From: Cupriavidus necator
Lineage (GTDB): Bacteria > Pseudomonadota > Gammaproteobacteria > Burkholderiales > Burkholderiaceae
NCBI RefSeq assembly: GCF_016127575.1
Contig: NZ_CP066020.1
Span: 330,001-362,000 of the forward strand
DNA: 32,000 nt
Direction of reading: 5' to 3'
Shown in pieces: positions 10,042-28,570 of this stretch. The notes under the pieces were generated by a model. The model had not been told where the DNA came from and ran no database searches. It saw only the letters and a list, made by a program, of their open reading frames with translations. Position 1 is the first letter of the stretch. Each line of letters starts with the position of its first letter. The position numbers and the translations under genes are program-made.

Positions 10042-10065
10042 GGGGTCGATGCGTCAAGGACGCGG
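10042..10065 (-). promoter_or_regulatory. Copy a of the conserved island motif GGGTCGATGCGTC-N4-GACGCGG (written as on the plus strand)
   Basis: GGGGTCGATGCGTCAAGGACGCGG, 82 nt upstream of the minus-strand start at 9960. Confidence 0.5.
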
Positions 10066-10137
10066 AGAAAACCGGGTTTCGGCAGCCTCTAGGGCTGTCG
10101 GAACATGGCTCACATGTTCTAAGGTGTGGGCGTATCG

Positions 10138-11598
10138 CTACGCAAACAGATCATCGGTCAGCCAGTCCATCGCTGGGGCAGTTAGCGATGACGACGGCAA
10201 CGCCGGCTTGGCGTCCGTTTCCTTCGAGCCTGGCGGCACCGGAGGCGCACCGACATCGTCTTCCAGCTCCATGCCAACCAGCGCCGTTAAGACATGTGGC
10301 AACACAGGCTCGGGTGGGGATGCATCGGATGCTGCCGCTACCGGATCAGCCACAAGATCCGCCAGCACGCGATCGGCAATCGACTGCGCATCGTTCGTCT
10401 CAAGCATCGAGAGGCAGTCCATGAGCGGATTGGCCTCAACACCCGTCAACTCACACCAGCGTCCCAGCTTCTCGGGCAATGTTGCGGCCCGGCTGATGCC
10501 TTCGGCCCGGCTACGAACTGCCGGTAGCACCCGGGCTTCGAGCTTCACCTCGGCACTGGCGCCAAAGAGAGCCGTGATGGCCTCCCGGTCCACAAGCTGG
10601 CGGTGCTCCTCGTTGACCGTCCAACGGATGCGCACGAACTTGTCGGCAGCATCGGTGGCCATCTCGGTCAGCTGCGCCATATCCGGCGGGCCGTCGAAGT
10701 CAATGCAGACGGACTGGCGCGCCGGTGTCGCCACCAGCGAGGCCTCGGTCCGGCGGGGAGCAATCTGCCAGCGCAGGTAGCCCTTTTCCCCAATCTCACC
10801 ATAGTGGAAGCGCCCGATGGAGCCCGGATAGGCCACCACCCTGCCCTCCTGTGCCCATTGCTGGGCGCGGTGAATGTGCCCGAGCATGAAGGCATCGCAA
10901 TCGGCATCGAACAGCGCGCCAATGGTGAATTCGTAGTCGAATCCGGCCATCGGCACCCCGTGCTCGGTCTGGCACCCGTTGACCGTACCGTGGGACACGC
11001 CGATCGTGCGCGCGCCCCTCGATCGCCATTGGTGATTGACGGTACCCGCAGCCCTCAGATAGTCGGCCAGGTGATCGCCGACTGCCGTGGCAGCACTTGC
11101 AACGCCAGCCGCGGCCGCCAGCACAGCCTTATTGACCGTCGGCACACAGGTGAACACCACTTCCGGTATGCCGTGCTGTGCTAGCAGCACGTCGATCTCC
11201 GCGGTGTCGAAGACGGGCCCCACCGACGGCACAAAGTGCCCTGCGCATAGTGCAACCTGATGGATGCGATCCGCGACATAGACGGGATACTGTGCGCCGA
11301 TGAGGCGAAACAGGTCCAGCGTGCCCGGGGGCTCGTGGCTATATGTGCCTTGCAGCATCAAAACGGGCATGCGTGCTGTCAGCTGGTGAACTCGGCGTGC
11401 CAGCGCCGAGAGCGCCGGTGTGTGCGCGTCCAGGCGGTGGTCGGTGGAATCCCCAGACACCACGCCAACTTGGCACCCGCCGGCAATCGCGTCATCGACC
11501 GCAAAGCCGAAGCAGCGGTCGGCCTCTGCCAGGTGGCCAGGGGAATAGTGCAGATCCGAGAAGTGCGCGACAAGCAGGCTATCGCCTTCATTGTGCAT
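10138..11598 (-). CDS. SbcD/Mre11-like calcineurin-type metallophosphoesterase with a long C-terminal extension
   Basis: LVAHFSDLHYSP (DxH), VVSGDSTDH (GD), ...GHIH... phosphoesterase motifs. Start taken at MHNEGD (11598) with GGAGG 8 nt upstream. The track ORF start at 11673 was rejected. Confidence 0.8.
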   Translation of the reverse strand: MHNEGDSLLVAHFSDLHYSPGHLAEADRCFGFAVDDAIAGGCQVGVVSGDSTDHRLDAHTPALSALARRVHQLTARMPVLMLQGTYSHEPPGTLDLFRLIGAQYPVYVADRIHQVALCAGHFVPSVGPVFDTAEIDVLLAQHGIPEVVFTCVPTVNKAVLAAAAGVASAATAVGDHLADYLRAAGTVNHQWRSRGARTIGVSHGTVNGCQTEHGVPMAGFDYEFTIGALFDADCDAFMLGHIHRAQQWAQEGRVVAYPGSIGRFHYGEIGEKGYLRWQIAPRRTEASLVATPARQSVCIDFDGPPDMAQLTEMATDAADKFVRIRWTVNEEHRQLVDREAITALFGASAEVKLEARVLPAVRSRAEGISRAATLPEKLGRWCELTGVEANPLMDCLSMLETNDAQSIADRVLADLVADPVAAASDASPPEPVLPHVLTALVGMELEDDVGAPPVPPGSKETDAKPALPSSSLTAPAMDWLTDDLFA

Positions 11599-11694
11599 GG
11601 TATGACCTCCAAAGAAATGTGCCGGCGTGCGGCAGGAAAAGAGAAAGGGAAGCCATATGGCTTCCCCTGACATGCCGGCACGAGGCTGGCGAAA

Positions 11695-12984: not shown

Positions 12985-13150
12985 GGTACGTCCTTTCTCC
13001 TGTCAGGAAAGCGAACGACGTCGGCCCGGATGGACGCAGCATGCTCCCGAAGGCGCTGGGCTGTGTCGGCCCCGCGCTGGGTCGTTGCGGCGATGGGAAA
13101 GCCTGACGCGCAGGCTTCCGAAAAGACTGGCGGCGCCATTGGCGCGCCAG

Positions 13151-13190
13151 AAACGAAAAAAGCCCGCTCCGGATTGCGCCGGCAGCGAGC
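13151..13190 (-). terminator. Rho-independent terminator or attenuator inside the long leader upstream of the 429-aa gene
   Basis: The minus strand reads GCTCGCTGCCGG-CGCAAT-CCGGAGCGGGC followed by TTTTTT. The stem has one bulge and one G-U pair. Confidence 0.5.
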
Positions 13191-13609
13191 TTTGCTATTC
13201 AGAACCTGCAATGCCACGCCCCTTCCGGGGGCGTGGCACTCAGGGAGCGGCGCACAATTGCGCGCTGCTCGATGCTGAGGACGTAAAGTCGTCCTCGTGC
13301 AGCATGGTCACGCTGCACAGCAACCCATTTCGCGAACCCACAGGTTCGGCCGCAGGTTCACGGATCGGCTCGACGGCTGCCGTTCTGCCCGGGAGGGGCC
13401 TTTGAGAGAGAGCTCCACATGATCCCGGGCTCGAACGGTGTCAGTCGCGTGCGCTCACAAGGAGGCACCGCGAGAACGCGTATTACGAGCTGATGAGGGA
13501 AGTGTTCGGCGAAAACACTTAGCACAAGAAATATCCACACTGGTAGCCAACCAGTCGGCGCGTGCGCATATGCACGACTTGAAGCAGAAGATGGACTCGC
13601 CAGGAGTCA

Positions 13610-13631
13610 GGGTCGATGCGTCAGTGACGCG
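13610..13631 (-). promoter_or_regulatory. Copy b of the conserved island motif
   Basis: GGGTCGATGCGTCAGTGACGCG. It lies in the 0.8-kb divergent intergenic region, in the same orientation as all other copies. Confidence 0.45.
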
Positions 13632-13773
13632 AGGTGTGAATGCATTGTGGCACAGAAAATCCGTCGCAAAGAATGCGAAAGCTCGCCAATTTGCCATAGC
13701 TTTCAAAGTCATCGAGTGCCCGGTTGTGTCCGACAATTTCACCCTGAGAGAGCGCTTCCGAGAACATGAAAAA

Positions 13774-14340
13774 ATGGCCGAACAGGATCCACCCAAGGTA
13801 TCAGCCAGTGGGCTCAGACCCATTGAGCGACACAACAGCGAAGAACGGCTAAGCCGCCTCACGCCGACGACGGCTTCAGCTACCCTCCACGCCTACTGCT
13901 CAAAGTTCGCGCGCGACTTCCTGGATGCACATTTCTACTACGCTTCATCCAAGTTCGTCGTGGCGCGTGGCGGCAAGGTCAAGGCGCTGGATGAAGCGTT
14001 TCGCGACGCGGAGGATTGGTATGGCAGTGCACTGAGCTGGCTTTCGAAGACCGATCAGGTCGAGATTCCCCTCTTCTACGAGGAGAAAGAGGTCAAGGTC
14101 TCCCATTCCTTCGCCGGCCGGCTGCTCAGACTGCTGATGCAGTTCGACCGGATTTTTGTTGAGACGCTCTACAGCCAGGAATGCGGGTCCATCTCTGCGG
14201 ACCAACGCACCACGACAATCCAGATCGCCGCAAAGCGGATCACCGCGATTCACCAACTCTGCATCCCGGACACAGACAAGTTCGGACCCGACGGCACACT
14301 GATTTCATCTCACCGGAGCTCCCCCGATGGACATGCGTGA
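13774..14340 (+). CDS. Hypothetical protein (188 aa); start uncertain
   Basis: Frame open from 13438, but the upstream part contains motif copy b and is AT-richer. MAEQDPPKVS... (13774) was chosen. No domain recognised with confidence. Confidence 0.5.
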   Translation: MAEQDPPKVSASGLRPIERHNSEERLSRLTPTTASATLHAYCSKFARDFLDAHFYYASSKFVVARGGKVKALDEAFRDAEDWYGSALSWLSKTDQVEIPLFYEEKEVKVSHSFAGRLLRLLMQFDRIFVETLYSQECGSISADQRTTTIQIAAKRITAIHQLCIPDTDKFGPDGTLISSHRSSPDGHA

Positions 14341-15010
14341 CATCGAGCAGCTGCATGCTCAATACGCCCAACCACCCCTTACGATCGACATCTCTCCGGC
14401 GGGTGCAGCGACGGCGCCGCATCTTGGCTATGGCGGCACTTCCACCGCACCAGCAAGGGCCTCCACCTCCCCGTTCCCGTTCGCGTTGCGCGGCAATCCC
14501 CGGCTGCTGTGGGGGCTTGGCTTCGTTTCCGCCGCAGCGCTCATGTTCATCATTGGCACATCTATTGGGAAGCGGGAATCGCGTGCCGGCACCGAGCAGG
14601 TGCAGCCGGTTCACTCCGCTCCCGAAGCTTCCGCGCGTGTTCCGGCGGCCGACGGCCATGAATGGCCGCGCAAGACCAACAGCGTCCCCGCATCGGAAGT
14701 AGCTCAGAGCACTGTATTGCCGGTATCTGGCGAGGCCGCAGTGGCGTCGACGTCCGCAGCATCCGCTGCCGCCGTGCCCGCGGAGCAAACGCGGGAGCGA
14801 TCACCAGCGGAGCCGAAGGCGGAGACAGTGAAGCGATCTGCGGCCCCGGCTGCGCCTGCCCCTGCGCTTGCCCCTGCACCAGCACCGGCGAGGGCCGCGA
14901 CCGTACTGGCCCCGGCCAAGACTGCACAGCAGCTGCCGACTAGTGCCGCGCCGGCGCGAAACACAGCGGCGCAGCATGCCAACTCCCCCACCGACATCAA
15001 GATGTTCTGA
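14327..15010 (+). CDS. Single-pass membrane protein with an Ala/Pro-rich C-terminal region
   Basis: GGAG lies 9 nt upstream and the gene overlaps the previous one by 14 nt. TM segment LLWGLGFVSAAALMFIIGTSI, then AAPAAPAPALAPAPAPARA low complexity. Confidence 0.65.
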   Translation: MDMRDIEQLHAQYAQPPLTIDISPAGAATAPHLGYGGTSTAPARASTSPFPFALRGNPRLLWGLGFVSAAALMFIIGTSIGKRESRAGTEQVQPVHSAPEASARVPAADGHEWPRKTNSVPASEVAQSTVLPVSGEAAVASTSAASAAAVPAEQTRERSPAEPKAETVKRSAAPAAPAPALAPAPAPARAATVLAPAKTAQQLPTSAAPARNTAAQHANSPTDIKMF

Positions 15011-15015
15011 GCGCC

Positions 15016-15426: not shown

Positions 15427-15485
15427 GGAACATGTTCCTTCCAACAAATCGAAAAGCTCAGTTCCACACCCTCTCTTTCGAGAGC

Positions 15486-16036: not shown

Positions 16037-16049
16037 TGGCAACGAGAGA

Positions 16050-16160: not shown

Positions 16161-17129
16161 TCATGCAATGAGCTCGATCGCAGCGTCCCAAGCGCGCTGC
16201 TTGAGTGCCGCGCCGGCACCGAACCACGCCGAATCCAGCCGATTGCCCGCATTGCGCGCTCGCTGCTGGTGATCGACGTACTCGGTGACGCTGTTCACCA
16301 GCCCCCAGGCAGTCCCGGCCGCCGATTCCAGCGTGGCACCACGACCGTTGCCCTCGAAGAGATTGAGCACAGCCTTCAGGCCGCGCTCGTTCACCTTGTC
16401 GGGACCGTTCGAATCCGGCTTCGTCCACGGGTACGTGAACAGGCGCTGGAAGAAGCGTTCCGATTCGACCTGACTCACCTTGCGGTCGGCCAGTTCATGC
16501 ATGCGGACCATGAAGCCATCCCACGACGAGATGGCGATGCCCAACTCTTCCTTGACAGCGCGCGGGTCGAACTGGCTGCGGTGCGGCACCTTGACGGCGC
16601 CGCGACTGCGGCCAAGCGCAATCTGCAGCGTGTTGTTGCAAACCACCCGCACCGACGTGAACTGGGCGGTGGTGGCCAAGGTGCCATCACAGGCCGTGGC
16701 CAGCAGCAGGTAGCCGCGCACCTCGTCGACGCCGGCGATCTTGGTCGACTGTCCCGTACGCGCGAGCGCCCAGAGCTTGCGACCTTCCTTGAGCACACCT
16801 GCCGTTTCAAGCTGGTAGCCACCGACCTCCGTCAGATCACGATAGAAGTCCAGGATCTCCGAGGGCTGGACGACCTGGTACCGCTTGGACACTGTTGCAA
16901 GCGGCTTCTTGGTATCCGAGCGAAACAGCACCTTCTGCTGGGGGAACGAATGAAGCGGATCGAGATCGTGGGAGCCGGCGCGATACATCACGTCGGTTTC
17001 CTCGATTCGCCAGTTCATGCCAGCAGCGTCCGCCCACACTTCGAGCGGCTGATTGCTTTCGAGCTGGTTGCCCAGGCCGTGCCACGGGGTAGCGCCGACA
17101 TAAGCCATGGTTTGAACGAGATGAGACAT
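16161..17129 (-). CDS. DUF932/DUF945-like phage/plasmid-associated protein
   Basis: MSHLVQTMAYVGATPWHGLGNQL... with the central ...GRKLWALA...GYLLLATACDGTLATTAQFTSVRVVCNNTL..., typical of this family. AGGAG lies 8 nt upstream of the ATG at 17129. The track ORF start at 17588 was rejected. Confidence 0.85.
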   Translation of the reverse strand: MSHLVQTMAYVGATPWHGLGNQLESNQPLEVWADAAGMNWRIEETDVMYRAGSHDLDPLHSFPQQKVLFRSDTKKPLATVSKRYQVVQPSEILDFYRDLTEVGGYQLETAGVLKEGRKLWALARTGQSTKIAGVDEVRGYLLLATACDGTLATTAQFTSVRVVCNNTLQIALGRSRGAVKVPHRSQFDPRAVKEELGIAISSWDGFMVRMHELADRKVSQVESERFFQRLFTYPWTKPDSNGPDKVNERGLKAVLNLFEGNGRGATLESAAGTAWGLVNSVTEYVDHQQRARNAGNRLDSAWFGAGAALKQRAWDAAIELIA

Positions 17130-17405
17130 GGGATTGCTCCTGAGAATGGGATAGCGCGAGCACGGCCCCAAGGCCGGTCGCAGGAAAGAAATGGGAAGAT
17201 CAGAATTCGCAGCGAGCAGGACTGCACGCGTGCGGGGCAAGACATGGCGCTTTCCGTGGCCGCACTCAGCGGGTCCAGGGCAACACGCCATCACGGCTAC
17301 AGCAAGAATTGGAGGTGCATGTGGGCAAGGGATAATGCCCACAGAGACGTCCCCACAGGGTTCGTCCCTGTGGGAAGTTGCAGAGGATGGCCGGCATGCC
17401 GGCTT

Positions 17406-17428
17406 GGTCGATGCGTCGTAGACGCGGG
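17406..17428 (-). promoter_or_regulatory. Copy c of the conserved island motif
   Basis: GGTCGATGCGTCGTAGACGCGGG, preceded by the palindrome CCGGCATGCCGG. It lies 277 nt upstream of the DUF932-like start. Confidence 0.5.
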
Positions 17429-17588
17429 TAAAACTCGGTTCGGACTGAACGTCCTTCAGTGCGAACAGAGCTTTGTGTGTAGTGCAAAGGCTAACGCAAG
17501 CGTCGCGTCCGGACGAACCCGAATGCTCAGGATATCCACGCGTGATTTGAAGAAGACGCCCCCAGCCAGTGGCCGGGGGAAAATGCAA

Positions 17589-20380: not shown

Positions 20381-20764
20381 TCAGCTACGCCGCCCGGCCA
20401 CCACGCGAAGCGTGGAAACCAGATTGGCATAGCCATGGTCGGTGGCCAGCGACTCCACATTGACGGTATTGTCGCGCCCCCCGGTCAAGTCATGGCGACC
20501 GCGACAGGTTCTGTAGGACATGCGCACTCCGCCTTCCTGGCCCGGGCCGTGCTGGATCTCGACAAGCAGCGAGTCCGTATGCAAGGCGAACACGTCGACG
20601 TCGCGACGGCGCTGGCGATGCTCGCGAATTGTGTAGTCCCGCGGGCTAAGTGCCATGTCGCCGGCGAAGCGGCGCAGCACACGGCATGCGTCACGGCGAA
20701 CCGCTTGGCAGGCAGAAGAATTGGTCGACGGGTGCCGACTGAAGAATGATTTAGGAAGCTTCAT
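20381..20764 (-). CDS. Hypothetical protein (127 aa)
   Basis: Start MKLPKSFF at 20764 with TTGAGGACATC upstream, the same SD context as the lipoprotein gene. The track ORF start at 21103 was rejected because it overlaps the upstream gene and motif d. Confidence 0.6.
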   Translation of the reverse strand: MKLPKSFFSRHPSTNSSACQAVRRDACRVLRRFAGDMALSPRDYTIREHRQRRRDVDVFALHTDSLLVEIQHGPGQEGGVRMSYRTCRGRHDLTGGRDNTVNVESLATDHGYANLVSTLRVVAGRRS

Positions 20765-20846
20765 GATGTCCTCAAGAATGCGCGGGACACCCCTTCCCAA
20801 CGGGACGAGTGTCCCGCAATGGGTTGGTCCGGCTATGCCGGACAGT

Positions 20847-20870
20847 GGGTCGATGCGTCGATGACGCGGG
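20847..20870 (-). promoter_or_regulatory. Copy d of the conserved island motif
   Basis: GGGTCGATGCGTCGATGACGCGGG, preceded by CCGGCTATGCCGG. It lies 83 nt upstream of the start at 20764. Confidence 0.5.
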
Positions 20871-20940
20871 TGAAAGCGCTTGCCGAAGCCTGAAAGCTTC
20901 GGCAAGCCCTCTCGGGCTTGCGATTGGGATGGGCCTGAGG

Positions 20941-21431: not shown

Positions 21432-21905
21432 TTAGTGAGTGAGGCGATAGCCGCCGGCACCCGAGACGAGAAACAGCTGCTCGCCAGAGACGAACTGCTG
21501 ATCCGCATCCTGGGTCACGACGACCTGGCGGCCACTGTCCGTGCGGACAATGACTTCCACGCCATCGCGGCGGCTCAACTGGTTCGCCGCCGTCTGCGCG
21601 ATGACCGCCGAGACGGTGCCCGACAGGGCGCCGGCCAGGTAACGGCCATTGCCGTCGCCGATGATGCGCGCACCAAGCACCGCACCAACGACGGCACCGA
21701 GAACACCGGGTACGCCGGTGTGGGCCGACATAATGCCGTCCCTGTCGACAATCGTGACGGGGCGAACCCTGACGACTGTGACAGCTTCAGCGTTACTTGT
21801 GCGCAGCGCTTCCGTCGCCCGGTAGGTATTGGGCGAAGTCGGCTGAGCAGCGCAGCCAGTGAAAACGGCGCAGCAAAGGAAAAGCAGGAAGAATCGCTTG
21901 ATCAT
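21432..21905 (-). CDS. Lipoprotein with a glycine-zipper (SlyB / 17-kDa-antigen-like) domain
   Basis: MIKRFFLLFLCCAVFTGC contains a lipobox. GVPGVLGAVVGAVLGARIIGDGNGRYLAGALSG is a glycine zipper. GAGG lies 7 nt upstream of ATG 21905. Confidence 0.75.
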   Translation of the reverse strand: MIKRFFLLFLCCAVFTGCAAQPTSPNTYRATEALRTSNAEAVTVVRVRPVTIVDRDGIMSAHTGVPGVLGAVVGAVLGARIIGDGNGRYLAGALSGTVSAVIAQTAANQLSRRDGVEVIVRTDSGRQVVVTQDADQQFVSGEQLFLVSGAGGYRLTH

Positions 21906-21995
21906 GATGGCCTCAACGAAAATGGGGCCAACATGCCCACGGGCAGGAAGGCCCGTAGGTGGGGAAAAAAGAGATGTCCGGCTATACAACCGGAA

Positions 21996-22018
21996 GTGTC
22001 GATGCGTCGGAGACGCGG
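21996..22018 (-). promoter_or_regulatory. Copy e of the conserved island motif
   Basis: GTGTCGATGCGTCGGAGACGCGG, preceded by CCGGCTATACAACCGG. It lies 91 nt upstream of the start at 21905. Confidence 0.5.
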
Positions 22019-22110
22019 TAGGTGCACCTATGTTAGCAGTGTCGAGCGCGTTTGTGGAGTCGTTCAATCCGGCGCAGCCTACTTACCGAAGCGCCGAATG
22101 CGGCTTCCGG

Positions 22111-22488: not shown

Positions 22489-22508
22489 GGGTCGATGATA
22501 GGTGCGGG
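22489..22508 (-). promoter_or_regulatory. Degenerate copy of the island motif (left part only)
   Basis: GGGTCGATGATAGGTGCGGG keeps GGGTCGATG and the terminal CGGG but lacks the GCGTC/GACGC dyad. It lies 52 nt upstream of the start at 22437. Confidence 0.25.
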
Positions 22509-22542
22509 CCGAACGCCACGTGGGGCGCCGCTGCAATGAATC

Positions 22543-22578
22543 CAAAAAAAATGCCATCCCCAAAACTTCGGGGACGGC
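22543..22578 (-). terminator. Rho-independent terminator after the ThiF-like gene
   Basis: The minus strand reads GCCGTCCCC-GAAGTTTT-GGGGATGGC (one G-U pair) followed by ATTTTTTTT. Confidence 0.6.
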
Positions 22579-22582
22579 GGGT

Positions 22583-23386
22583 TCAAGCGGCATGGCGAGA
22601 GGCGCGGCTCGCGCGCTGCTTCGGTTCGGGCAGGTGATACCCGAATCGCGCCCAGGCCTGCGGGTCAACCGGCAGTGGATTCGTACGCCCCACTGCCAAA
22701 TTCACGAACGCGCCGCAGTACTTCAGCGTCCCCGTGCGAAACAGCGTCCAAAGCAAGTTGTAGGCCTGCACCGCGATCGCCTGGTTGATCACCAGCGACT
22801 GCTTCTGCAGCGCCTCTGCCATCGAACACGACGGCGCAGTGTCGGCCTTGTCCCCTTTCGGGTCCAGCAGCTCGGGGAAAAGGTCGCCGACATGGGGCAA
22901 GCGCTGCGCCGCCTTGCCGCGCACTTGGCCGAGAATCACCTGACCACTGTCCGACTCGTTGCCGCAGTCAAGATAGTAGCCACCTGTGCCACGCTTCATC
23001 GCTCCAAGGATCGCCTTGCGGGCAGCCCGCGTGTCAACACAGCCAATTGCCATGTCGCAGACGAAGCGATCGCCGCTCGCAACCCGACGCGTGTGCGCTT
23101 CCCAGCGCGTCCCCATCAGGTTGTTCAGTCGGTTCACGATCAGCGTGGCCTTGTGCTGGCCCACATCGACGGGATAGAAGCCCTGACGACCGATATTGGT
23201 CTCGCTGACGGTATCGTCATCGTAGACCGTGCAATCGATGCCGCCCGGGTGGCCCAGCTCCAGCATGGCGTGATGCAGCCGCGCCAGATTGGGTAGCAAG
23301 GCGCTGCCGGTGCCGCCGGCACCTACCACTACCACCTTCCAGGCACGCGTCGTCATGTTCGCGGGAATGCGATGCTCGAAGGTCAT
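22583..23386 (-). CDS. PRTRC system ThiF-family (E1-like adenylyltransferase) protein
   Basis: VVVVGAGGTGS (GxGxxG), YDDDTVSETNIGRQ, CVDTRAARK. The ATG at 23386 overlaps the stop of the JAB gene (ATGA). Confidence 0.9.
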   Translation of the reverse strand: MTFEHRIPANMTTRAWKVVVVGAGGTGSALLPNLARLHHAMLELGHPGGIDCTVYDDDTVSETNIGRQGFYPVDVGQHKATLIVNRLNNLMGTRWEAHTRRVASGDRFVCDMAIGCVDTRAARKAILGAMKRGTGGYYLDCGNESDSGQVILGQVRGKAAQRLPHVGDLFPELLDPKGDKADTAPSCSMAEALQKQSLVINQAIAVQAYNLLWTLFRTGTLKYCGAFVNLAVGRTNPLPVDPQAWARFGYHLPEPKQRASRASRHAA

Positions 23387-24024
23387 GCCAGCACCTCCTC
23401 GCGCGCCGCGGCGTACCAGTCGGCTGGAACCTTCTCCACGTTCTCGAAAATGCCCTTGGCGCACAGCCGCAGTGCCATCGAAGGCGTTGCCGCGTCGCAG
23501 TTGCCCATCACGAACGCAAACTTCACGTCGTGGCAGTCGTCGTCATCGTCGGTAGACGAGAAGAACGCCGGGTGACGCCCATGCGAGTGGCAGTCGACCA
23601 CCAGCACATCGTCTGCAGCCAGTGGGGGACGCTCGTACTTCAGGTGCCCGCCGCTGTGCTCCAGGATCTGCACTGGCACCAGCCGGAACGAAGCGCTATC
23701 GGCATTCCAGACCACCCACCCACCAGTTTCCTTGGGATGCGCGGCACGCGCCATCGCGGCGAACTCCCCGATCAACTGAGCCGGGATGCGCCCGCAGCGC
23801 AGATCGGTTGTCTCTGCCGCCTCGCCGTATGGAATGGCCGTGCGATGCTGGAAAGCGCCGAGGTGGCGGACGACGCTCAGCCAGGGCCGGACGATCTCAA
23901 GGAACACGCCGTTAGCCGCAATGAGCAGGCGCTCGCCGGACCGTTCCATGGGCGCGAGCGCTCCGAAGCGCGGCACCATCACAGAAGGAAAGGATTGCTG
24001 CAGGGCAGCGTCAGCAGGATTCAT
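23383..24024 (-). CDS. PRTRC system protein A (JAB/MPN metalloprotease-like)
   Basis: DCHSHGRHPAFFSSTDDDD fits the JAMM motif H-x-H-x7-S-x2-D. ATGA overlaps occur at both ends. Confidence 0.85.
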   Translation of the reverse strand: MNPADAALQQSFPSVMVPRFGALAPMERSGERLLIAANGVFLEIVRPWLSVVRHLGAFQHRTAIPYGEAAETTDLRCGRIPAQLIGEFAAMARAAHPKETGGWVVWNADSASFRLVPVQILEHSGGHLKYERPPLAADDVLVVDCHSHGRHPAFFSSTDDDDDCHDVKFAFVMGNCDAATPSMALRLCAKGIFENVEKVPADWYAAAREEVLA

Positions 24025-24746
24025 GATGACTTTTCCAGTTTGCCGGCGATCAGATCCGCCAGCTTGAGTTTCATGGGAACGAGGACTTGCTTGGGGTAGT
24101 CGGGAAACTGCCCGTCAAGCATGTCCTTCCAGAAGGCATAGGCGCCGCGCTCGTACGTCACGCGCTTGCTGCCATGGTTGGGATGGGTAAATGCCGAGTT
24201 GAAGAATCCGGCTTCCCAACCTGCGATTGATGCCACGTCGATCTGCTTGGGCACATGGGCTGAGCCGATGCAGATCTTCCCGTGGTCCCAGGTATTGAAG
24301 TAAGGCGGCTCGCAAAGCTCGCTGGCCGGTACGGGGCGCTCGTCCCCTCTCAGGGCGAAGACCCGGAACCCGGACTGCGATGCCTGGAACACAAGCGCGG
24401 GGTGTGGCACAACCGCACTGCGCTTCCCGAACTCCTTGCAGTCGAAGAAAACGCGACGCTGCGCCGCGGGACACCACCATGTCACCGCGGTGGGGCTGAT
24501 CGACAGCACGTTGGGTGTGAGGAACTCGCCGTTGGGGAGCGAGGCCTCCGCCACTTCACGGACTGCGTGGATCAACGCCATACGGTTCAGCGGTGTGCCG
24601 GCACCAATGACGGGGCGACCCGAGCCATCCGGCTCGATGCGATGGGCCGTGGCGTAGGAGAACTGCCCTGGCCCTTGCCCATAAAGCAAAATGGCCCCTT
24701 GCAGGGCCACGTCGTGCGACCGCGTAGCGGTCAGGATTTCGGCCAT
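24021..24746 (-). CDS. PRTRC system protein B (prokaryotic E2/UBC-like)
   Basis: EPPYFNTWDHGKICIGS resembles the E2 HPN...C active-site region. AGGAGGG SD. Position between F and A as in the PRTRC cassette. Confidence 0.8.
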   Translation of the reverse strand: MAEILTATRSHDVALQGAILLYGQGPGQFSYATAHRIEPDGSGRPVIGAGTPLNRMALIHAVREVAEASLPNGEFLTPNVLSISPTAVTWWCPAAQRRVFFDCKEFGKRSAVVPHPALVFQASQSGFRVFALRGDERPVPASELCEPPYFNTWDHGKICIGSAHVPKQIDVASIAGWEAGFFNSAFTHPNHGSKRVTYERGAYAFWKDMLDGQFPDYPKQVLVPMKLKLADLIAGKLEKSS

Positions 24747-24755
24747 ATGGCCCTC

Positions 24756-25895
24756 CTAGTCAGAAATGAGTGTGAGAACGCGATCGAGCGCCGCGATGGT
24801 CTTCAGCATGCCGTCCAGATCCCTGAACTGCTGCCGGATCGCCTTTGGCTCGCCCGCAATGGGTATGAAGCATTGGAACAGCGTTGCATCGCCGCTGCAG
24901 TTGAGCCCGTCATACAGATCGTCGAGTACCTGCGTGACGTAGTCGGACTGCCTATAGGCGAGCGTGGCCGCGGAGTATGCCGGCTCGGCCCACTGGGATC
25001 CTGCAACGGCCGACCTATCGCCCTGCCTCTTAAGGGTCAGGTTCAGTTCGGCCAGCGCGACACATAGATCCTTGACCCAGCCATTGTTGGCGCGAGACAG
25101 CTCATAGAGCTTCCTGCTACCGAATGCTCGCAGCTTGCTCGACGCCGGATAGCCGTGGCAGGCCGGTGGCAGTACGTCATCCGGTGCGAGTTCCGGCCTA
25201 ACGACAGACGGCAGGTATCGCTCGATGTCGCCTTCATCCATGTCACAACTCTCGGCAAGGAATTCCCTCGCGTTCTTGTCGTCGGCAAGGGTACTGTCGT
25301 ACTCCCAGTGCCACCGCGCAAACAGGTCAAGCAGGGCTTCAGGGGTGCGCAGGAAGAGCGACTTCGCGCTAGCCGTATTGATCAGCGACATCGCGGTGTA
25401 GAGAAGGTGCGGGTGCACCGCTCGCAGCGCGCTCGCGCGCGCTTCACCAATGAAGTAGACGTCGTCGCCGGGCATGTCGATGGCGAGATACAGCGGCGCC
25501 TCGATCTCGTCCTCCCAGCCGAATTGCATCAACTGGTCCTTTGCAGCGCCTATGTCGATCAGCGAGAAGCCGAAACTCAGGCGCTTGCACTCAGGTGTGC
25601 GGGCGCGCAGCCACGCAAACATGGCCTGGGCGAATGCATCGCCCGCACCCGTTGGAGTCGAAACATCGTTCGCACGCAGCACACCGGTGGCAAACTGTGC
25701 ACGGACAAGGCCCAAAACATCGACCTCATCCCCGAAGGTAAGCAGCCCGCTATTCGGAACCCCAGCAGGGATGGCCGGCAGCGTCAGAAAATCATGGGCA
25801 GGTCGACGTCGGGCAATGGGATGCTGTCGCGCAGGCGTCCATGCGGGTTGTCCTGCATCGACCTCTGGAACAAACGACCGAGGATCGAACAGCAT
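24756..25895 (-). CDS. PRTRC system protein F-like (379 aa, unknown function)
   Basis: Assigned by position and size in the cassette. GAGGAG SD upstream of ATG 25895. No catalytic motif recognised. Confidence 0.65.
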   Translation of the reverse strand: MLFDPRSFVPEVDAGQPAWTPARQHPIARRRPAHDFLTLPAIPAGVPNSGLLTFGDEVDVLGLVRAQFATGVLRANDVSTPTGAGDAFAQAMFAWLRARTPECKRLSFGFSLIDIGAAKDQLMQFGWEDEIEAPLYLAIDMPGDDVYFIGEARASALRAVHPHLLYTAMSLINTASAKSLFLRTPEALLDLFARWHWEYDSTLADDKNAREFLAESCDMDEGDIERYLPSVVRPELAPDDVLPPACHGYPASSKLRAFGSRKLYELSRANNGWVKDLCVALAELNLTLKRQGDRSAVAGSQWAEPAYSAATLAYRQSDYVTQVLDDLYDGLNCSGDATLFQCFIPIAGEPKAIRQQFRDLDGMLKTIAALDRVLTLISD

Positions 25896-25915
25896 TGTTG
25901 AGTCTCCTCAGAATG

Positions 25916-25942
25916 TGAAAAAACCGCCCTTTCGGGCGGTTT
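25916..25942 (-). terminator. Intra-operon rho-independent terminator or attenuator between the Ubl gene and protein F
   Basis: The minus strand reads AACCGCCC-GAAA-GGGCGGTT followed by TTTTT. It lies in the 90-nt gap between 25986 and 25895. Confidence 0.55.
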
Positions 25943-25985
25943 CATGGTGGTAGCGAACTGGCCGGTTGCCAGTGCTTTCATCAGG

Positions 25986-26210
25986 TCAGATTCGCGCATG
26001 CGCGCCCTTGGCGCCGGCGGCGCGAACGAAGGTGAAGCTCGCAACCTCGCCCTTGACCTCCGGACCATCCACCGAGGCGGTGGTCAGCTCGGGATACTGA
26101 GCCGAATAGATGTCGCGCACCTGCTCTGGCGTGAACGCCGGACCAGGGTCCACAAAGGACATGCCGTTGTAGGAGAACTGACGCAGCAACTTCTTGATTT
26201 CGAGTGCCAT
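25986..26210 (-). CDS. PRTRC system protein C (74 aa, ubiquitin-like size)
   Basis: AAGGAGA SD, start MALEIKK at 26210. The track ORF start at 26264 was rejected because it overlaps protein E. Sequence ...YPELTTASVDGPEVKGEVASFTFVRAAGAKGAHARI. Confidence 0.75.
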   Translation of the reverse strand: MALEIKKLLRQFSYNGMSFVDPGPAFTPEQVRDIYSAQYPELTTASVDGPEVKGEVASFTFVRAAGAKGAHARI

Positions 26211-26220
26211 GTCGGTCTCC

Positions 26221-26661
26221 TTAGAGCAGGGATGCCAGATCAGTACCGACCGAGGACGGCGCACTCACCTTCGCGTCCGCTTCGGTCTGCGCGGCATCAT
26301 CGGCATCCGCATCATCATCCGAAGCGCTTTCGCTTTCCGACGCCGATGGCGATGCGGCCTTAGCCAGCGCCTTCGTCGCATTGGACGATTGCGTGGACTT
26401 GGCGGCATCGAGAATCGACTTCGTTGCCTCGGCCTGCTCGGCCAGCGAGCGATGCGATTCGCTCACACTCGTGACGGCCGCCGCGAACTCGGCATCCAGG
26501 TCCGCAGGCGTTGCCGACAGCACCAGAGGCGACGTGAGCGCGGCATCCGCGGCATTCTTGATGACTGGCAGCACGACAACGGACATGACATCGCCATGCA
26601 TGGACAGCGTAACAACAACCTTGTCGCTCGCGCGGACGAGCGGGACCAATTCAGTGAACAT
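26221..26661 (-). CDS. PRTRC system protein E-like (146 aa, acidic Ser/Asp/Ala-rich tail)
   Basis: Assigned by position between the ParB-like and Ubl genes. N-terminal globular part, then ...SPSASESESASDDDADADDAAQTEADA. Confidence 0.65.
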   Translation of the reverse strand: MFTELVPLVRASDKVVVTLSMHGDVMSVVVLPVIKNAADAALTSPLVLSATPADLDAEFAAAVTSVSESHRSLAEQAEATKSILDAAKSTQSSNATKALAKAASPSASESESASDDDADADDAAQTEADAKVSAPSSVGTDLASLL

Positions 26662-26735
26662 GGTGAATCCTTTTGGGGAAATGGGGTGAGGCAGGGCGCC
26701 GGATGGCGCCCTGCGTTAAGGCAGAGTGAAAGTGA

Positions 26736-28418
26736 TCAGAAGCCCAGGACCTTGGGCACCTTGCCGGTGTAGTCAAAGCCATCGACAGCCAGCAGGCCGG
26801 CAATGACTTCGGGTTTCGGCTTGTTGAACAGCTTGGCAAAGCTATCGCCCAGCGCCTTGCGAATGCCCAGTTCGTCCGCGAGAACCTTCATCTCGGACTT
26901 GGTGAGCATCTCCAGGAAGTATTGCGACTTCTGCAGGCTCCAGTGCGCGCGCAGATCGAGCTTGTGGAAGCGGCACAGTTCCTTGAGGTTCGGCACCTCC
27001 ATGCCGTCAATTGCCGCGACAGTCAACGCCACGGTCAGTTGCTGGCGCTTGCCAGCGTCCAGTGCATGCACCGCCGTCAGGCAGCCTTGCAGCGTCGATG
27101 ACGCCTTCTGCTCCGTCAGCTTCTCGAAGAACTTGCTCATCTTGTCGCCGCCGATGTTGCGTGCGAGGCCATTGAGGGCGATCGAGATCAGGTAGGCATT
27201 GGCCTGGTCCGCGTTCTGCGCGACTTCCTTGCGCAGCGCCTTGCGCCAGAGATCGGTCCGGTAGTTCTTGACCTTCTCCGACTCGCTGATCGAGGTGACA
27301 GGCTTCTCGGCTGACGCCGAAGACTTGTCCCCGCCCTTCGCAGCCGCGGGCTTGCCGGAACCGGCCGGGCCCCCTGCAGGCTTTTGCGCCGCCGCTTTCG
27401 CGTCGCGCTCCGCCTTCAGGCGTGCCGCCACCTTCCGCTGGTTGCAGACGGTGTCGAAGCACTGACCACTGTAGACCTTACCCAGTGAATCGGGCAGTCC
27501 GCTGACGGCGGCACCGAAGTTCTCGCAACCGTGGCACGCCTTGGCTTGCTCCTCCCCCACCCCAGTCGAGCCATCGACCTGAAGCTGGATGCGGGTGTGG
27601 TTGTCGCCGGGGCGTACGATGCGAATGACCTGGTACTCGTCCTTGAGCCCGTAGCTGATGCTGTCGAGCTTGCGGTCGGTCTTCTCGGTATAGCAGGCGC
27701 GGTTGGTGCAGTTGCCCGTGGCAATTGCCTCGCCGAACATCTCCGTCTGCAACGAAGAGTTGTGCTGGCAGCTTGCGCATTCCGTCTTGTCGAAGATGGC
27801 TTTCTCCAGGCTGCACGCGGCAGCCTCGATGGTCTTCTTCAACTCGGATACGGACTTCTTCTCGCTCACGATGACCGGCAGGAGCTTGTCCTGCGTGGCC
27901 TTGGCGAGCGTCGCCAGCAATTCAGCGTGGCCGAGCTGGATGACACGCGTGTTGAGCGCATTCAGGACCGATTCGCTGCAGTTCATGAGAGCCAGGCGCT
28001 TGTCCAGCGTCGAGCGCGACCAGCCAAGGAGGCGGGCCGCTTCGTCGCGGTCGCCCTGCAACTGGCCTGCGATCCTCGATGCTGCCACGGCCTCCTCGGA
28101 AGGCGCCATGTCCGCACGCTGCACGTTTTCAATCAACGCCATGCGGTCGGCCTCGGCGTCGGTGATCACCTTGAGCGTGACGGGGATATGGTATCCCTCG
28201 CCATGCGCGGCCAGTGCGGCGCGATAGCGGCGTTCACCGGCAACGACTTCATACTCATGCCCATTTTCATCGCCCTCAACGGGACGGATAAGAATCGGCT
28301 GAAGGATACCGTCCACGCGAATGGATTCGGTCAGTTCAGCCATTTGGACAGGATCAAAGTACTTGCGCGGGTTACGGCCAGGACGGATCTTGCCAATGAC
28401 AACGGTGGGGTTTTGCAT
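26736..28418 (-). CDS. PRTRC system ParB-family protein (560 aa)
   Basis: ParB/Srx N-terminal domain: GKIRPGRNPRKYFDP, ILQPILIRP, VVAGERRYRAALAA. GGAGAA SD before ATG 28418. The track ORF start at 28520 was rejected. Confidence 0.9.
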   Translation of the reverse strand: MQNPTVVIGKIRPGRNPRKYFDPVQMAELTESIRVDGILQPILIRPVEGDENGHEYEVVAGERRYRAALAAHGEGYHIPVTLKVITDAEADRMALIENVQRADMAPSEEAVAASRIAGQLQGDRDEAARLLGWSRSTLDKRLALMNCSESVLNALNTRVIQLGHAELLATLAKATQDKLLPVIVSEKKSVSELKKTIEAAACSLEKAIFDKTECASCQHNSSLQTEMFGEAIATGNCTNRACYTEKTDRKLDSISYGLKDEYQVIRIVRPGDNHTRIQLQVDGSTGVGEEQAKACHGCENFGAAVSGLPDSLGKVYSGQCFDTVCNQRKVAARLKAERDAKAAAQKPAGGPAGSGKPAAAKGGDKSSASAEKPVTSISESEKVKNYRTDLWRKALRKEVAQNADQANAYLISIALNGLARNIGGDKMSKFFEKLTEQKASSTLQGCLTAVHALDAGKRQQLTVALTVAAIDGMEVPNLKELCRFHKLDLRAHWSLQKSQYFLEMLTKSEMKVLADELGIRKALGDSFAKLFNKPKPEVIAGLLAVDGFDYTGKVPKVLGF

Positions 28419-28547
28419 TTTGGGTTCTCCGAGACGGAATGGGAACCCGTTGCCGCACCGGGAACGTGGTTCCCGATGGGGTGGAAGGATGGACTGCCAG
28501 GCTATGCCGGCGACCACCATACTGCAGAAGCTGGCACCAAAAGGTGC

Positions 28548-28570
28548 GGGGTCGATGCGTCTGGGACGCG
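28548..28570 (-). promoter_or_regulatory. Copy f of the conserved island motif
   Basis: GGGGTCGATGCGTCTGGGACGCG, 130 nt upstream of the ParB-like start. It lies downstream (in the minus sense) of the 28742-28772 terminator. Confidence 0.5.

Follow-up and report, generated by a model that had tools for sequence, protein, structure and literature searches.

A repeated 5′ leader module of the pHG1/pMOL28 megaplasmid family that looks like an undescribed RNA-level control tag

The short motif that recurs six times in the window (the whole 32,000-nucleotide stretch analysed, part of megaplasmid pHG1 of Cupriavidus necator H16) looks like the near-invariant core of a repeated 5′ leader module of the pHG1/pMOL28 family of conjugative megaplasmids (Burkholderiaceae). 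The tagged mRNAs are those of maintenance and establishment genes, and the tag stands either at the 5′ start of the mRNA or at internal operon segments. In appearance the motif is closer to an RNA-level control tag, as yet undescribed, than to a classical promoter or operator, and our best reading, offered tentatively, is a sense-strand leader tag read by a putative factor. What an earlier note on this sequence called an island is the backbone of a conjugative megaplasmid. Its remark that the motif is not a described site holds, as no Rfam model matches the six-copy motif, the CH34 transcription start site (TSS) papers do not discuss it, and no description was found in the literature checked.

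With the 4-nt spacer first reported, the pattern has no match in the window even at three mismatches, and the copies themselves show a 3-nt spacer. Once corrected to GTCGATGCGTC-N3-GACGCG, the pattern matches exactly at six places, each on the + strand, with a chance expectation of 0.42 when three mismatches are allowed; none of 100 shuffles reached six matches. Because these matches fall at 10045, 13612, 17407, 20849, 21998 and 28551, the start coordinates originally given for copies a to f are correct to within 1-3 nt. The pattern search also bears out the single orientation of all copies and their absence from the left 10 kb of the window, and the distances from the noted motif starts to the next minus-strand start codon stand at 82 (a), 626 (b), 277 (c), 83 (d), 91 (e) and 130 nt (f). 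The + strand consensus is GTCGAT-GCGTC-N3-GACGC: the dyad with its variable spacer and the invariant GTCGAT flank were described correctly, but the outer Gs (GGG.../...GG) are not invariant. The proposed intergenic location of all copies conflicts with RefSeq coding sequences drawn over copies b and d, whose starts look mis-called. The supposed half copy at 22489 shares only GGGTCGAT with the motif; it is the decayed ortholog (unit h) of a complete and transcriptionally active unit on pMOL28. As the earlier note proposed, the ParB/PRTRC, lipoprotein, membrane-protein, DUF932 and SbcCD-like units have this cis element in common. It is specific to the plasmid backbone, is retained at orthologous positions in related plasmids of only ~78% identity, and is not a generic genomic repeat. 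pMOL28 carries ten full units, all on one strand.

The conserved unit is much larger than the ~23 nt first assigned to it, with a 7-nt pyrimidine tail, hairpins P1-P3 and a CU-rich linker. Read in the direction of the genes, the motif becomes a 5-bp hairpin, P0 (GCGUC-NNN-GACGC, 3-nt loop), followed by AUCGAC(C). The complete module would run from a 7-nt pyrimidine-rich tail through P0, the AUCGAC(C) linker, which would be single-stranded, P1 of arbitrary sequence and a CU-rich linker to P2 and P3. Hairpins P1-P3 covary, and the ribosome-binding site and start codon lie within P3. RNAalifold recovers P0-P1-P2-P3 in two ortholog groups, with ~26 G.U cells on the sense strand vs ~4 broken ones, and P1 is found in 85% of units vs 27% of shuffles, in the form of 32 distinct stems. 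The sense-strand structure of P1-P3 is strongly supported, and the C. pauculus ortholog of the unit f P1 (GCGCC/GGUGC) has a G.U pair on the sense strand. Total folding energy does not differ between sense and antisense.

Strand-specific signatures extend to P0 and the linker. Pyrimidines make up 80% of the sense-strand P0 loop and G 4%, vs 26% G in the background (p ~ 3e-13), and only 4 of 26 loop types also occur as their own reverse complement. Downstream, pentamers complementary to the linker are scarcer than expected (7 vs 16.2 ± 3.5). Pairing is kept in the P0 variants: T:A has become C:G by a double change twice independently, one variant has a U.G pair and one a re-registered stem (GCGC-UACU-GCGC), and no C.A pair occurs among the P0 variants of genuine units; the pMOL28 ortholog of unit a has a compensated stem (GCGCC/GGCGC). 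Such variants are only a handful, so that covariation in P0 itself is thin. The near-invariance of the stem (83 of 91 units) is unusual for an RNA helix, matches the look of a DNA-binding site and counts against an RNA tag.

We located the module relative to transcription starts using published Cappable-seq data for CH34 (5,763 starts), which cover the sister plasmid pMOL28 rather than pHG1. From sequence, the start was predicted at an A 7 nt 5′ of GCGTC, that is, 7 nt before P0. Six of the ten pMOL28 units have a listed start at exactly that nucleotide (90669, 84558, 83384, 75119, 137004 and 130858), and a seventh, a variant, starts 1 nt off (93740) with its linker still at +21; the last three of these sites were predicted before look-up. 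Five of the unit TSSs rank 28, 34, 39, 47 and 102 among the CH34 starts. By orthology, a sigma-70-type start is strongly supported as the beginning of the module in units b, e and f, and because the module begins there, P0 occupies +8 to +20 of their mRNAs. In the pMOL28 ortholog of unit f the core starts 7 nt after TSS_90669-5 (rank 34), from which the unit f start in Table 1 is inferred; the orthologs of units e, b and h correspond to TSS_83384-5 (rank 39), TSS_75119-5 and TSS_84558-5 (rank 102), the last belonging to an intact unit to which the decayed unit h aligns.

These positions do not fit the promoter element suggested in the earlier note, as the motif sits at +8 to +26, downstream of the start. 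The -35/-10 regions that precede it are heterogeneous: the -10 hexamer takes 21 different forms and is missing from whole classes of units, and the promoters vary between units while +1 to +27 is nearly invariant. Both the position relative to mapped starts, by orthology, and the promoter heterogeneity are strongly supported. Units a, c and d lack a promoter altogether and lie inside operons, where the module directly follows a 12-bp hairpin and short U run; no TSS is listed in the CH34 Cappable-seq data for their pMOL28 orthologs, and their core is nevertheless unchanged. From the sequential operon numbering in the CH34 study we infer that a single RNA-seq-defined operon may extend from parB to the gene following DUF932. 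The coordinates of all units are collected in Table 1; P1 of unit e, together with the tail that follows it, was also flagged as terminator-like.

Table 1. Units of the leader module and neighbouring elements, in window coordinates
Feature	Position	Strand	Details
Unit f core	28551..28569	-	P0 GCGTC-CCA-GACGC 28557-28569; linker ATCGAC 28551-28556; exact motif match; leader of PRTRC parB operon, start codon 28418
Unit f promoter-proximal	28576..28588	-	-10 TATCCT 28583-28588; predicted start A 28576; -10-like hexamer a fixed 12 nt from CGCGTC
Unit f -35-like TTGCTC	28607-28612	-	Part of unit f promoter
Unit f P1	28534..28547	-	GCACC-UUUU-GGUGC, then CU-rich linker CCAGCUUCUGCAG 28522-28534
Unit e	21998..22035	-	-10 TAACAT 22030-22035; predicted TSS 22023; P0 22004-22016; linker 21998-22003; leader of glycine-zipper lipoprotein gene
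Unit e downstream leader	21903..21994	-	P1 21977-21994, U-rich linker, P2, P3; P3 encloses SD GAGG and AUG (21903-21914); compensatory and G.U changes (RNAalifold, 9 orthologs)
Unit d, promoter-less	20849..20906	-	12-bp covarying hairpin 20879-20906, then CGCTTTCACCC; P0 20855-20867; linker 20849-20854
Unit d downstream leader	20762..20843	-	P1 20827-20843, P2, P3 around SD GAGGA and ATG 20764 (RNAalifold, 8 orthologs)
Unit c, promoter-less	17407..17466	-	12-bp hairpin 17438-17466, then CGAG-TTTT-ACCC; P0 17413-17425; linker 17407-17412; 277 nt upstream of DUF932
Unit c P1	17390-17403	-	Part of unit c
Unit b	13612..13649	-	-10 CACAAT 13644-13649; predicted TSS 13637; P0 13618-13630; linker 13612-13617
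Unit b P1	13594-13608	-	Part of unit b
Unit a, without promoter or P1	10045..10104	-	12-bp hairpin 10076-10104, then CCGG-TTTT-CTCC; P0 10051-10063; linker 10045-10050; leader of 171-aa ORF and SbcC-like gene
Decayed unit h	22489..22536	-	-35-like TTGCAG, tail CACCTATC, linker ATCGACCC; P0 hairpin and -10 lost
Intrinsic terminator	28752..28772	-	Closes helicase operon, just upstream of unit f promoter
Similar intrinsic terminator	22553-22578		Before unit h
Similar intrinsic terminator	17559-17579		Before unit c
sbcD RNA (Rfam RF01757)	13202..13356	-	161.9 bits; inside long 5′ UTR begun by unit b, upstream of Gp3-like, SbcD-like and SbcC-like genes

The sbcD RNA is, like the module, a structured non-coding element of this plasmid backbone; it is confined to Burkholderiales and lies in the unit b transcript, an arrangement that is identical on pMOL28. 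It differs in being a structure of its own, 155 nt in length and 256 nt further downstream, with a single occurrence per plasmid.

The almost invariant dyad and its fixed distance to the -10 and TSS would also be expected of a double-stranded DNA operator. A plasmid repressor bound to the 21-bp site spanning +8 to +26 would then block or roadblock RNA polymerase, and expression would be transient after conjugative entry; we consider this unlikely. Candidates for the repressor would be the PRTRC ParB-family protein, in the manner of KorB, or an unrecognised small protein, and one copy does precede parB, which alone among the genes immediately downstream of a unit encodes a recognisable HTH protein. 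There are precedents for operators repeated across the promoters of establishment genes. However, the site is asymmetric and always runs along transcription, its spacer is strongly strand-biased, bare P0 palindromes are at chance level in pMOL28 as a whole (4 vs ~5 expected), and compensatory and wobble substitutions are seen in the stem. Nor is there any promoter to control at three of the six copies in the window, and the promoters that bear the site are among the strongest steady-state 5′ ends in CH34, the opposite of a tightly repressed establishment promoter.

The KorB operator (OB) of IncP-1 plasmids is a 13-bp palindrome scattered over the backbone, with some sites far from promoters; it is fully symmetric, works in either orientation and lies at variable positions. 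Here too a 13-bp palindrome is dispersed, with some copies remote from promoters, and a ParB-family gene adjoins one copy, but the site is asymmetric, has a strand-biased spacer and is fixed at +8. The CUP sequences of IncN plasmids such as pKM101, described in passages of PMC6289460 that cite Delver & Belogurov 1997, are double-stranded sites for the ArdK repressor that overlap promoters. They likewise form a regulon on a conjugative plasmid, a short element repeated in one orientation before several leading- or establishment-region genes, whereas the present tag is transcribed, has hairpin and strand-specific signatures, occurs without a promoter as well, marks very active starts and has no sequence similarity to CUP. 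In the Reg576 system of Bacillus pumilus plasmid p576, dual TTATCCC heptamers on promoter DNA are bound by a ribbon-helix-helix repressor (PMC6294495). Several establishment-gene promoters share one repeated motif there too, in a model of coordinated expression after transfer; the present element is instead a hairpin and linker placed after the transcription start, and has no known repressor.

The order of a promoter-proximal hairpin, a conserved single-stranded box and additional internal copies recalls the lambda nut and rrn boxB-boxA sites, in which a transcribed promoter-proximal hairpin accompanies a linear box and the boxB loop is conserved. Processive antitermination of this kind, in which the nascent hairpin and box would load a factor onto RNA polymerase for reading through terminators in long operons and internal copies would reload it as in rRNA operons, seems rather improbable. 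Terminators at 19691-19670 and 17579-17559 do lie between the nearest promoter, that of unit e, and DUF932, with no promoter between, and the CH34 numbering hints at a single operon across this region. Against it, the tag has no boxA-like sequence, its stem rather than its loop is conserved, the window has no annotated or detected paralog of N, Q or NusG, and the spacing of the units, one every 1-7 genes and typically 83-130 nt ahead of a start codon, suggests a function at the level of the gene.

It is very unlikely that the module has no dedicated function, being the residue of a duplicated promoter-leader cassette or an intrinsic leader hairpin without a partner. The units are clearly of common modular ancestry, and a 5′ hairpin can stabilise an mRNA without a trans factor. 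Across six genera, however, the 16 core positions (P0 stem and linker) hold ~1.95 bits per position and the flanks have diverged to ~0.2 upstream and ~0.3 downstream; P1-P3 covary freely and P0 does not, covariation would be tolerated in an intrinsic hairpin, and P0, preceded by 7 unpaired nt, is a poor protector of the 5′ end.

Frpo is an imperfect hairpin of ~300 nt that rebuilds -35 and -10 elements in single-stranded DNA and works only until the second strand is synthesised. The units resemble the hairpins recognised by primases and relaxases, in which the stem is invariant, the loop free and the single-stranded flank conserved. Homologous non-coding Frpo/ssi repeats lie upstream of establishment genes in the leading regions of F and ColIb-P9 (PMC11541004, PMC9849209), and the present units share their single orientation, scattered on one strand through an establishment-type region with ssb, primase, anti-restriction and ParB-like genes. 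A signal on the transferred single strand, either an ssi priming site or an Frpo-like promoter active in the recipient, nevertheless has the slightest chance of being right, as the units lie within 1 nt of ordinary duplex sigma-70-type starts in vegetative cells, their -35/-10 elements are outside any hairpin and the hairpins downstream of the start, the G.U pairs are on the mRNA-sense strand although an ssDNA promoter needs a template-strand fold, and no oriT or transfer polarity is known for the pHG1/pMOL28 family.

A function as an RNA tag remains a tentative proposal overall. An interaction with RNA polymerase on DNA could account equally well for the constant spacing between the -10 and P0, and no candidate RNA-binding protein was found among the backbone ORFs. 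In units b and c, where 277-626 nt separate the tag from the start codon, direct translational control is a poor fit. The idea of a single dedicated trans-acting factor, raised in the earlier note, is still reasonable, although the factor probably reads RNA. In the RNA-tag reading, P0 and the linker would form a sequence-specific recognition tag for this putative factor, plasmid-encoded or host-family-specific, and the internal copies (a, c and d) would be exposed in the same form through read-through or processing at the U run. The factor would then set the stability and/or translation of establishment and maintenance transcripts whose ribosome-binding site is otherwise sequestered.

The pattern GTCGATGCGTC-N3-GACGCG matches the window exactly six times, always on the + strand (units a to f in the table), which bears out the number and the single orientation of the copies reported in the earlier note. 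The consensus proposed there contains a 4-nt spacer and matches nowhere in the window, not even at three mismatches, because the true spacer, read at each copy, is 3 nt; its outer Gs are not invariant among the copies either. For the corrected pattern the chance expectation is 0.42 with three mismatches allowed, and six matches were reached in 0 of 100 shuffles. A relaxed structural search of the window, for any hairpin followed by ATCGA, yielded no further convincing copy, its two extra matches both lying within the PRTRC-F coding sequence. The distances to the next minus-strand start codon are as had been described, and orthologous units are present at the same intergenic positions in pMOL28, the sister plasmid of Cupriavidus metallidurans CH34. 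The supposed half copy at 22489 is a decayed site (unit h), and its equivalent position in pMOL28 carries a mapped transcription start. Spacer length apart, the original observation was essentially right, and its interpretation was right in part.

The claim that all copies are intergenic meets two RefSeq CDSs that span copies b and d, of which the latter also covers the hairpin upstream, but both annotated starts look mis-called; for the gene overlapping unit d, the ATG at 20764 with the Shine-Dalgarno sequence GAGGA is the more likely start. The conserved cores thereby expose likely start-codon mis-annotations. The original pMOL28 start of Rmet_6222 would also overlap the sbcD RNA. Several copies are preceded on the + strand by a Shine-Dalgarno-like sequence and an ATG; by inspection, a small + strand ORF through the motif was rejected, as its frame is not the same from copy to copy and CTG stands in one of them.

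The window is 100% identical to the pHG1 megaplasmid of C. necator H16 (NC_005241.1; record coordinate = window + 298856). Its backbone also occurs in pMOL28, in plasmids of C. taiwanensis, C. oxalaticus and C. pauculus, and in others; PMC2864759, too, states that the backbone is shared. These plasmids are typed as conjugative (MOBH relaxase, MPF_T); the literature defines no oriT for the family. From high to low coordinates, the minus-strand genes encode an SNF2 helicase, PRTRC ParB, the PRTRC ubiquitin-like cassette, a glycine-zipper lipoprotein, small ORFs without known function, DUF932, and Gp3-like, SbcD-like and SbcC-like proteins, and genes for Lar, an orphan methyltransferase and an exonuclease lie to their right. 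Gene content and the backbone match therefore assign the copies to a backbone region for plasmid establishment and maintenance, not to an island as had been supposed. The PRTRC cassette (ThiF/E1-like, E2-like, JAB and ubiquitin-like protein C), together with its neighbours Lar, the orphan methyltransferase, Gp37/68, a 3'-5' exonuclease and DUF1173, looks like an anti-defence and establishment region.

When 185,579 species genomes were scanned, at least 120 loci matched 16 specified bases. Among the matches listed, about 43 loci show the complete layout, several of them often on the same contig; they belong to Cupriavidus, Paraburkholderia, Caballeronia, Burkholderia, Ralstonia and Pararobbsia. 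Lone matches in GC-rich phyla unrelated to these fall within ordinary sequence, as would be predicted by chance in 596 Gb. Members of the family are pHG1 (hydrogen autotrophy), pMOL28 (metal resistance), the symbiosis plasmids of C. taiwanensis and Paraburkholderia, and Burkholderia plasmids. In B. gladioli, a MOBH plasmid with a ParB of only 54% identity has the element before parB. The element is absent at the distant PRTRC parB loci of Ralstonia insidiosa, Undibacterium and P. aeruginosa megaplasmids, so that these offer no diverged versions with which to widen the covariation test.

Coordinates of the copies (pattern search), mapped starts and neighbouring features; positions refer to the window unless a plasmid or compared locus is named, and ranks are by mean score
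Feature	Position	Strand	Detail
Unit a	10045	+	82 nt to next minus-strand start codon
Unit b	13612	+	626 nt to start codon; start predicted by orthology at 13637
Unit c	17407	+	277 nt to start codon
Unit d	20849	+	83 nt to start codon
Unit e	21998	+	91 nt to start codon; start predicted by orthology at 22023
Unit f	28551	+	130 nt to start codon; start predicted by orthology at 28576
12-bp hairpin before unit a	10076-10104	-	covaries between plasmids
12-bp hairpin before unit c	17438-17466	-	covaries between plasmids
12-bp hairpin before unit d	20879-20906	-	covaries between plasmids
Variant unit	L121 (pHG1) ~39690-39720		~2.8 kb right of window end
Duplication at unit h	L125 (C. taiwanensis) ~24170-24200		cgcgtcacacctc twice
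RefSeq CDS start over core of unit b	13579-14340	+	
RefSeq CDS start over core of unit d	20381-20905	-	
sbcD RNA (Rfam RF01757)	13202-13356; L122 16343-16497	-	161.9 bits
Canonical terminators inside operons	19691-19670; 17579-17559		
Bare palindrome GCGTCGATGACGC	27092-27104		inside parB CDS; no ATCGAC flank
Bare palindrome GCGTCGATGACGC	pMOL28 91069-91081		intergenic; no ATCGAC flank
Unit c-DUF932 leader	17129-17406	-	277 nt
Box ~GCTnnnnGAAATTnGnGAGCTTTC, unit b	~13675-13700		
parB leader hairpins	~28420-28520	-	
parB leader hairpins, compared loci	L130 ~8900-8985; L131 ~8830-8930; L132 ~8800-8885		
PRTRC region, window part	22583-28418	-	
PRTRC region, further part	L121 (pHG1) 40465-47732		
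FlhC-family activator gene	pMOL28 139730-140908		
TSS_90669-5	pMOL28		parB2; rank 34; exactly the predicted nucleotide
TSS_83384-5	pMOL28		slyB; rank 39; exactly the predicted nucleotide
TSS_75119-5	pMOL28		rank 1119; exactly the predicted nucleotide
TSS_84558-5	pMOL28		position equivalent to unit h; rank 102
TSS_137004-5	pMOL28		rank 28; predicted 137004
TSS_130858-5	pMOL28		rank 899; predicted 130858
TSS_93740-5	pMOL28		variant unit; rank 47; predicted ~93739, 1 nt off

Read in the direction of the genes, each copy consists of a 7-nt pyrimidine-rich tail, the hairpin P0 (GCGTC-NNN-GACGC), the linker ATCGAC(C), a second hairpin P1, a CU-rich linker with the consensus CCATCTTCTGC, and more hairpins; P1 changes in sequence from copy to copy, and unit a is without it. 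The P0 stem and linker hold about 1.95 bits per position, compared with about 0.2 bits for -60 to -20, 0.94 bits for the -10 hexamer of promoter-type units (21 different hexamers) and about 0.3 bits for the leader beyond the linker. Units a, c and d have no -10, and directly before P0 they carry a 12-bp covarying hairpin, 4 nt, TTTT and ACCC. These hairpins, which a terminator scan did not call as canonical terminators, may act in weak attenuation, in 3' stabilisation or in processing. Since the core is constant and the region upstream is not, the conserved entity is the transcribed part, however transcription arrives. The operon numbering of CH34 (Op1899r, Op1900f, Op1901r, Op1902f) suggests that units f, h, e, d and c belong to one RNA-seq-defined operon and units b and a to another.

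Other features were seen around individual units. In C. taiwanensis unit h, the tail and first half of the stem are tandemly duplicated just before P0. The leader between unit c and the DUF932 start codon, present in both pHG1 and pMOL28, contains further hairpins, and some plasmids add a short ORF with a Shine-Dalgarno sequence. A second conserved box precedes P0 of unit b by about 45-70 nt and recurs upstream of weaker b-type promoters at many Paraburkholderia and Caballeronia loci (e.g. the compared loci L116, L105, L049 and L100); it may bind an FlhC-family activator related to AcaCD, SetCD and BisDC, because the plasmids encode one. The hairpins of the parB leader (CCC..GGGAACC ... GGTTCCC) enclose the Shine-Dalgarno sequence and are recognisable even in the R. 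insidiosa and Undibacterium plasmids that lack P0; they may be a separate, older leader structure.

In 54 family units a -10-like hexamer, TAnnnT, ends 12 nt before CGCGTC and an A stands at -7 relative to GCGTC, and a start was therefore predicted 7 nt before P0. We compared this prediction with the Cappable-seq table of CH34 and its plasmid pMOL28 (Große et al. 2022, PMC9045368, Table S1). The complete assembly of pMOL28 contains ten units, two of them new and one a variant, which share one strand and lie within 71-137 kb, and the starts at 137004, 130858 and ~93739 were predicted before the table was consulted; the first stands at the head of the operon with ssb and primase. At seven of the ten units transcripts start where predicted, exactly at six and 1 nt off at the variant. 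All seven starts were scored RpoD-type, and five fall within the top 102 of 5,763 genome TSSs in growing CH34 cells, which puts several tagged transcripts among the cell's most abundant primary 5' ends. The variant unit, with P0 changed to GCGC-UACU-GCGC followed by AUCGACC and P1, has an ortholog in pHG1 and keeps its linker at +21 despite the changed hairpin. For units a, c and d, a TSS is listed neither at the pMOL28 units nor for the genes after them. Papers on CH34 TSSs list the starts without discussion, and the main text of a 2026 study omits these promoters.

The position of the motif relative to transcription starts is thus anchored experimentally in pMOL28, where it occupies +8 to +26, with P0 at +8 to +20 and the linker from +21. 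By orthology, and on strong support, P0 of window units b, e and f lies at +8 to +20 too, the motif beginning 7 nt after a sigma-70-type start, and the other three units are operon-internal; the pHG1 positions are drawn from pMOL28 because a literature search found no paper with TSS data for H16. The motif is therefore not the promoter element that had been suggested, since mapped starts lie 7 nt upstream of it, the -10 hexamers are separate and diverse, and a, c and d have none. What stands of the regulon-wide element is a cis element shared by a plasmid regulon, which is probably not a classical operator either. By inspection, a sigma-54 or ECF promoter in the flanks was rejected for inconsistent spacings; TCGACC-N16-21-CATCTT as a -35/-10 pair was rejected because its spacer varies from 16 to 21 nt and includes a hairpin that covaries, and because transcription was mapped to start upstream of the pair. 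The start of unit b begins a long 5' UTR that contains the sbcD RNA, upstream of the Gp3-like/SbcD-like/SbcC-like operon; in pMOL28 the mapped TSS_75119 lies 278 nt before the first nucleotide of this RNA, so that a promoter is now defined for the orphan motif. A search of Rfam 15 gave no match at any of the six copies (E <= 5), and only the sbcD RNA passed the threshold.

The evidence for a single-stranded, sense-strand element comes from several independent observations. The site is asymmetric by nature and co-oriented with transcription in every unit. On the sense strand the 3-nt P0 loop is 80% pyrimidine and 4% G against a background of 26% G (chi-square p ~ 3e-13, n = 72), and only 4 of 26 loop types are also present as their own reverse complement. 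An exact P0 is found in 83 of 91 units, and the few genuine variants all remain compatible with a paired stem: pMOL28 units a and h carry the compensated stem GCGCC/GGCGC, as independent events because their closest orthologs keep GCGTC/GACGC and the loops differ; GCGUU/GACGC forms a U.G pair; and the GCGC-UACU-GCGC form is shared by pHG1 and pMOL28. No C.A pair in P0 was found among genuine units.

Hairpins were assessed by direct calls and by RNAalifold for each ortholog group. P1 is present in 85% of units versus 27% of shuffles, with 32 distinct stems, and RNAalifold gives P0-P1-P2-P3 alike for nine orthologs of unit e and eight of unit d, with compensatory pairs and about 26 sense-strand G.U cells versus about 4 broken cells; these G.U pairs would become C.A mismatches if the opposite strand folded. 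In both groups, and likewise in unit a, the Shine-Dalgarno sequence and start codon lie inside P3. The data strongly support folding of P1-P3 in the sense RNA and sequestration of the ribosome-binding site. The leader downstream is depleted of 5-mers that are complementary to the linker (7 observed versus 16.2 +/- 3.5 expected), as if the linker were kept unpaired, and no long-range pairing (pseudoknot) with it was found in the downstream leaders. The leaders are clearly structured (mean z = -2.95; P0 alone, -5.0 kcal/mol). An intrinsic terminator was rejected, as AUCGACC follows P0 and the terminator scan does not list P0; the scan flags only P1 of unit e, with a U-rich tail.

There is strong support for the motif as the first part of a structured 5' leader that is repeated as a module. 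Sense transcription ahead of the coding region, mapped in pMOL28 and carried over to the window by orthology, and sense-strand structure with covariation in P1-P3 mark it as a candidate RNA leader tag, with a putative cis-regulatory function, on the MOBH megaplasmids of Burkholderiaceae. The reading that we favour, though tentatively, is that P0 and AUCGAC(C) are a recognition tag for a trans-acting factor that would read them sequence-specifically and set the stability and/or translation of the mRNA of each unit. Read-through would expose the internal copies, or else cleavage in the U run immediately before them; such cleavage would fit the loose RNase E preference RN|WUU and create the same tail-P0 5' end as in primary transcripts. 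The TSS score counts 5'-triphosphate ends, so control after initiation is compatible with the high ranks. Against an RNA tag stand the few P0 variants, a total folding energy without strand preference (sense -31.6 versus antisense -31.8 kcal/mol) and the failure of domain searches on small backbone ORFs to match an RNA-binding candidate. A more specific proposal, possible but less secure, is that the 21-nt hairpin and linker form an RNA 'address tag' through which a putative dedicated factor, either a protein that binds RNA or one that loads onto the nascent transcript for antitermination, would control a plasmid-wide post-initiation regulon of parB/PRTRC, ssb-primase, DUF932, SbcCD-like and lipoprotein genes on these megaplasmids.

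The near-invariance of the stem also speaks against an RNA tag, being what would be expected of a protein-bound DNA site. A rival reading is a duplex operator for a plasmid repressor, e.g. a ParB-family protein. The site occurs at the promoters of b, e and f and at seven in pMOL28, and also at the promoter-less units a, c and d; directly downstream of a unit, only ParB is recognisable as an HTH protein, and the small backbone ORFs gave no domain matches in the search for a binding partner. We consider an operator unlikely, as the site is found on one strand only and with an asymmetric flank, its loop is biased on the sense strand, and its stem has compensatory and G.U variants. Stand-alone P0 palindromes were rejected as operators, being at chance level in the whole of pMOL28 (4 seen versus ~5 expected). 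Nor are the promoters held repressed in growing CH34 cells: their very abundant steady-state 5' ends are hard to reconcile with a repressor at +8 to +26.

A serious variant, though one we rate as rather improbable, is an antitermination site of the nut or rrn kind: a transcribed promoter-proximal hairpin adjoins a conserved linear box, internal copies exist too, canonical terminators lie inside the operons and DUF932 has no promoter before it, but a boxA-like sequence was not seen in the units. That the element has no dedicated function is very unlikely. A single-stranded DNA role in transfer, as in Frpo/ssi promoters, is very unlikely too, given that -35 and -10 lie outside the hairpins, the starts were mapped in vegetative cells and the G.U pairs sit on the mRNA-sense strand.

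Conjugative plasmids need a fast, coordinated switch-on of establishment and anti-defence genes; the ways in which they are known to achieve it are repressor-operator circuits (KorB, ArdK/CUP, Reg576) on the one hand and single-stranded promoters (Frpo) on the other. KorB/OB of IncP-1 is a repeated cis element coordinating plasmid genes, and Frpo/ssi are single-stranded promoters whose hairpin carries -35 and -10. Repeated cis elements that coordinate plasmid establishment genes are the closest known kinds, among them CUP/ArdK of IncN plasmids (PMC6289460) and the Reg576 operators of plasmid p576 (PMC6294495). With all of these the present element shares the logic of one motif for many establishment operons in one orientation. 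However, CUP/ArdK, Reg576 and KorB/OB are duplex repressor sites, whereas this element is not symmetric and is probably neither a duplex nor a repressing site, and its hairpins contain neither the -35 nor the -10 found in those of Frpo/ssi. The nut and rrn leaders have a similar layout, but no boxA was seen in the element, and it matches no Rfam family.

The plasmid family appears to tag the 5' end of every establishment transcript, and internal operon segments as well, with one invariant hairpin-linker. If the address tag is real, it would be a new class of cis-regulatory RNA, and the control of establishment genes would be distinct from the repressor-operator and single-stranded DNA promoter modes known so far. 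The sbcD RNA, an orphan Rfam motif, gains a promoter and a transcript context. If a factor does read the tag, it would make plasmid establishment accessible in Burkholderiaceae that matter for the environment and for biotechnology, and would offer a compact, portable leader for strain engineering of C. necator.
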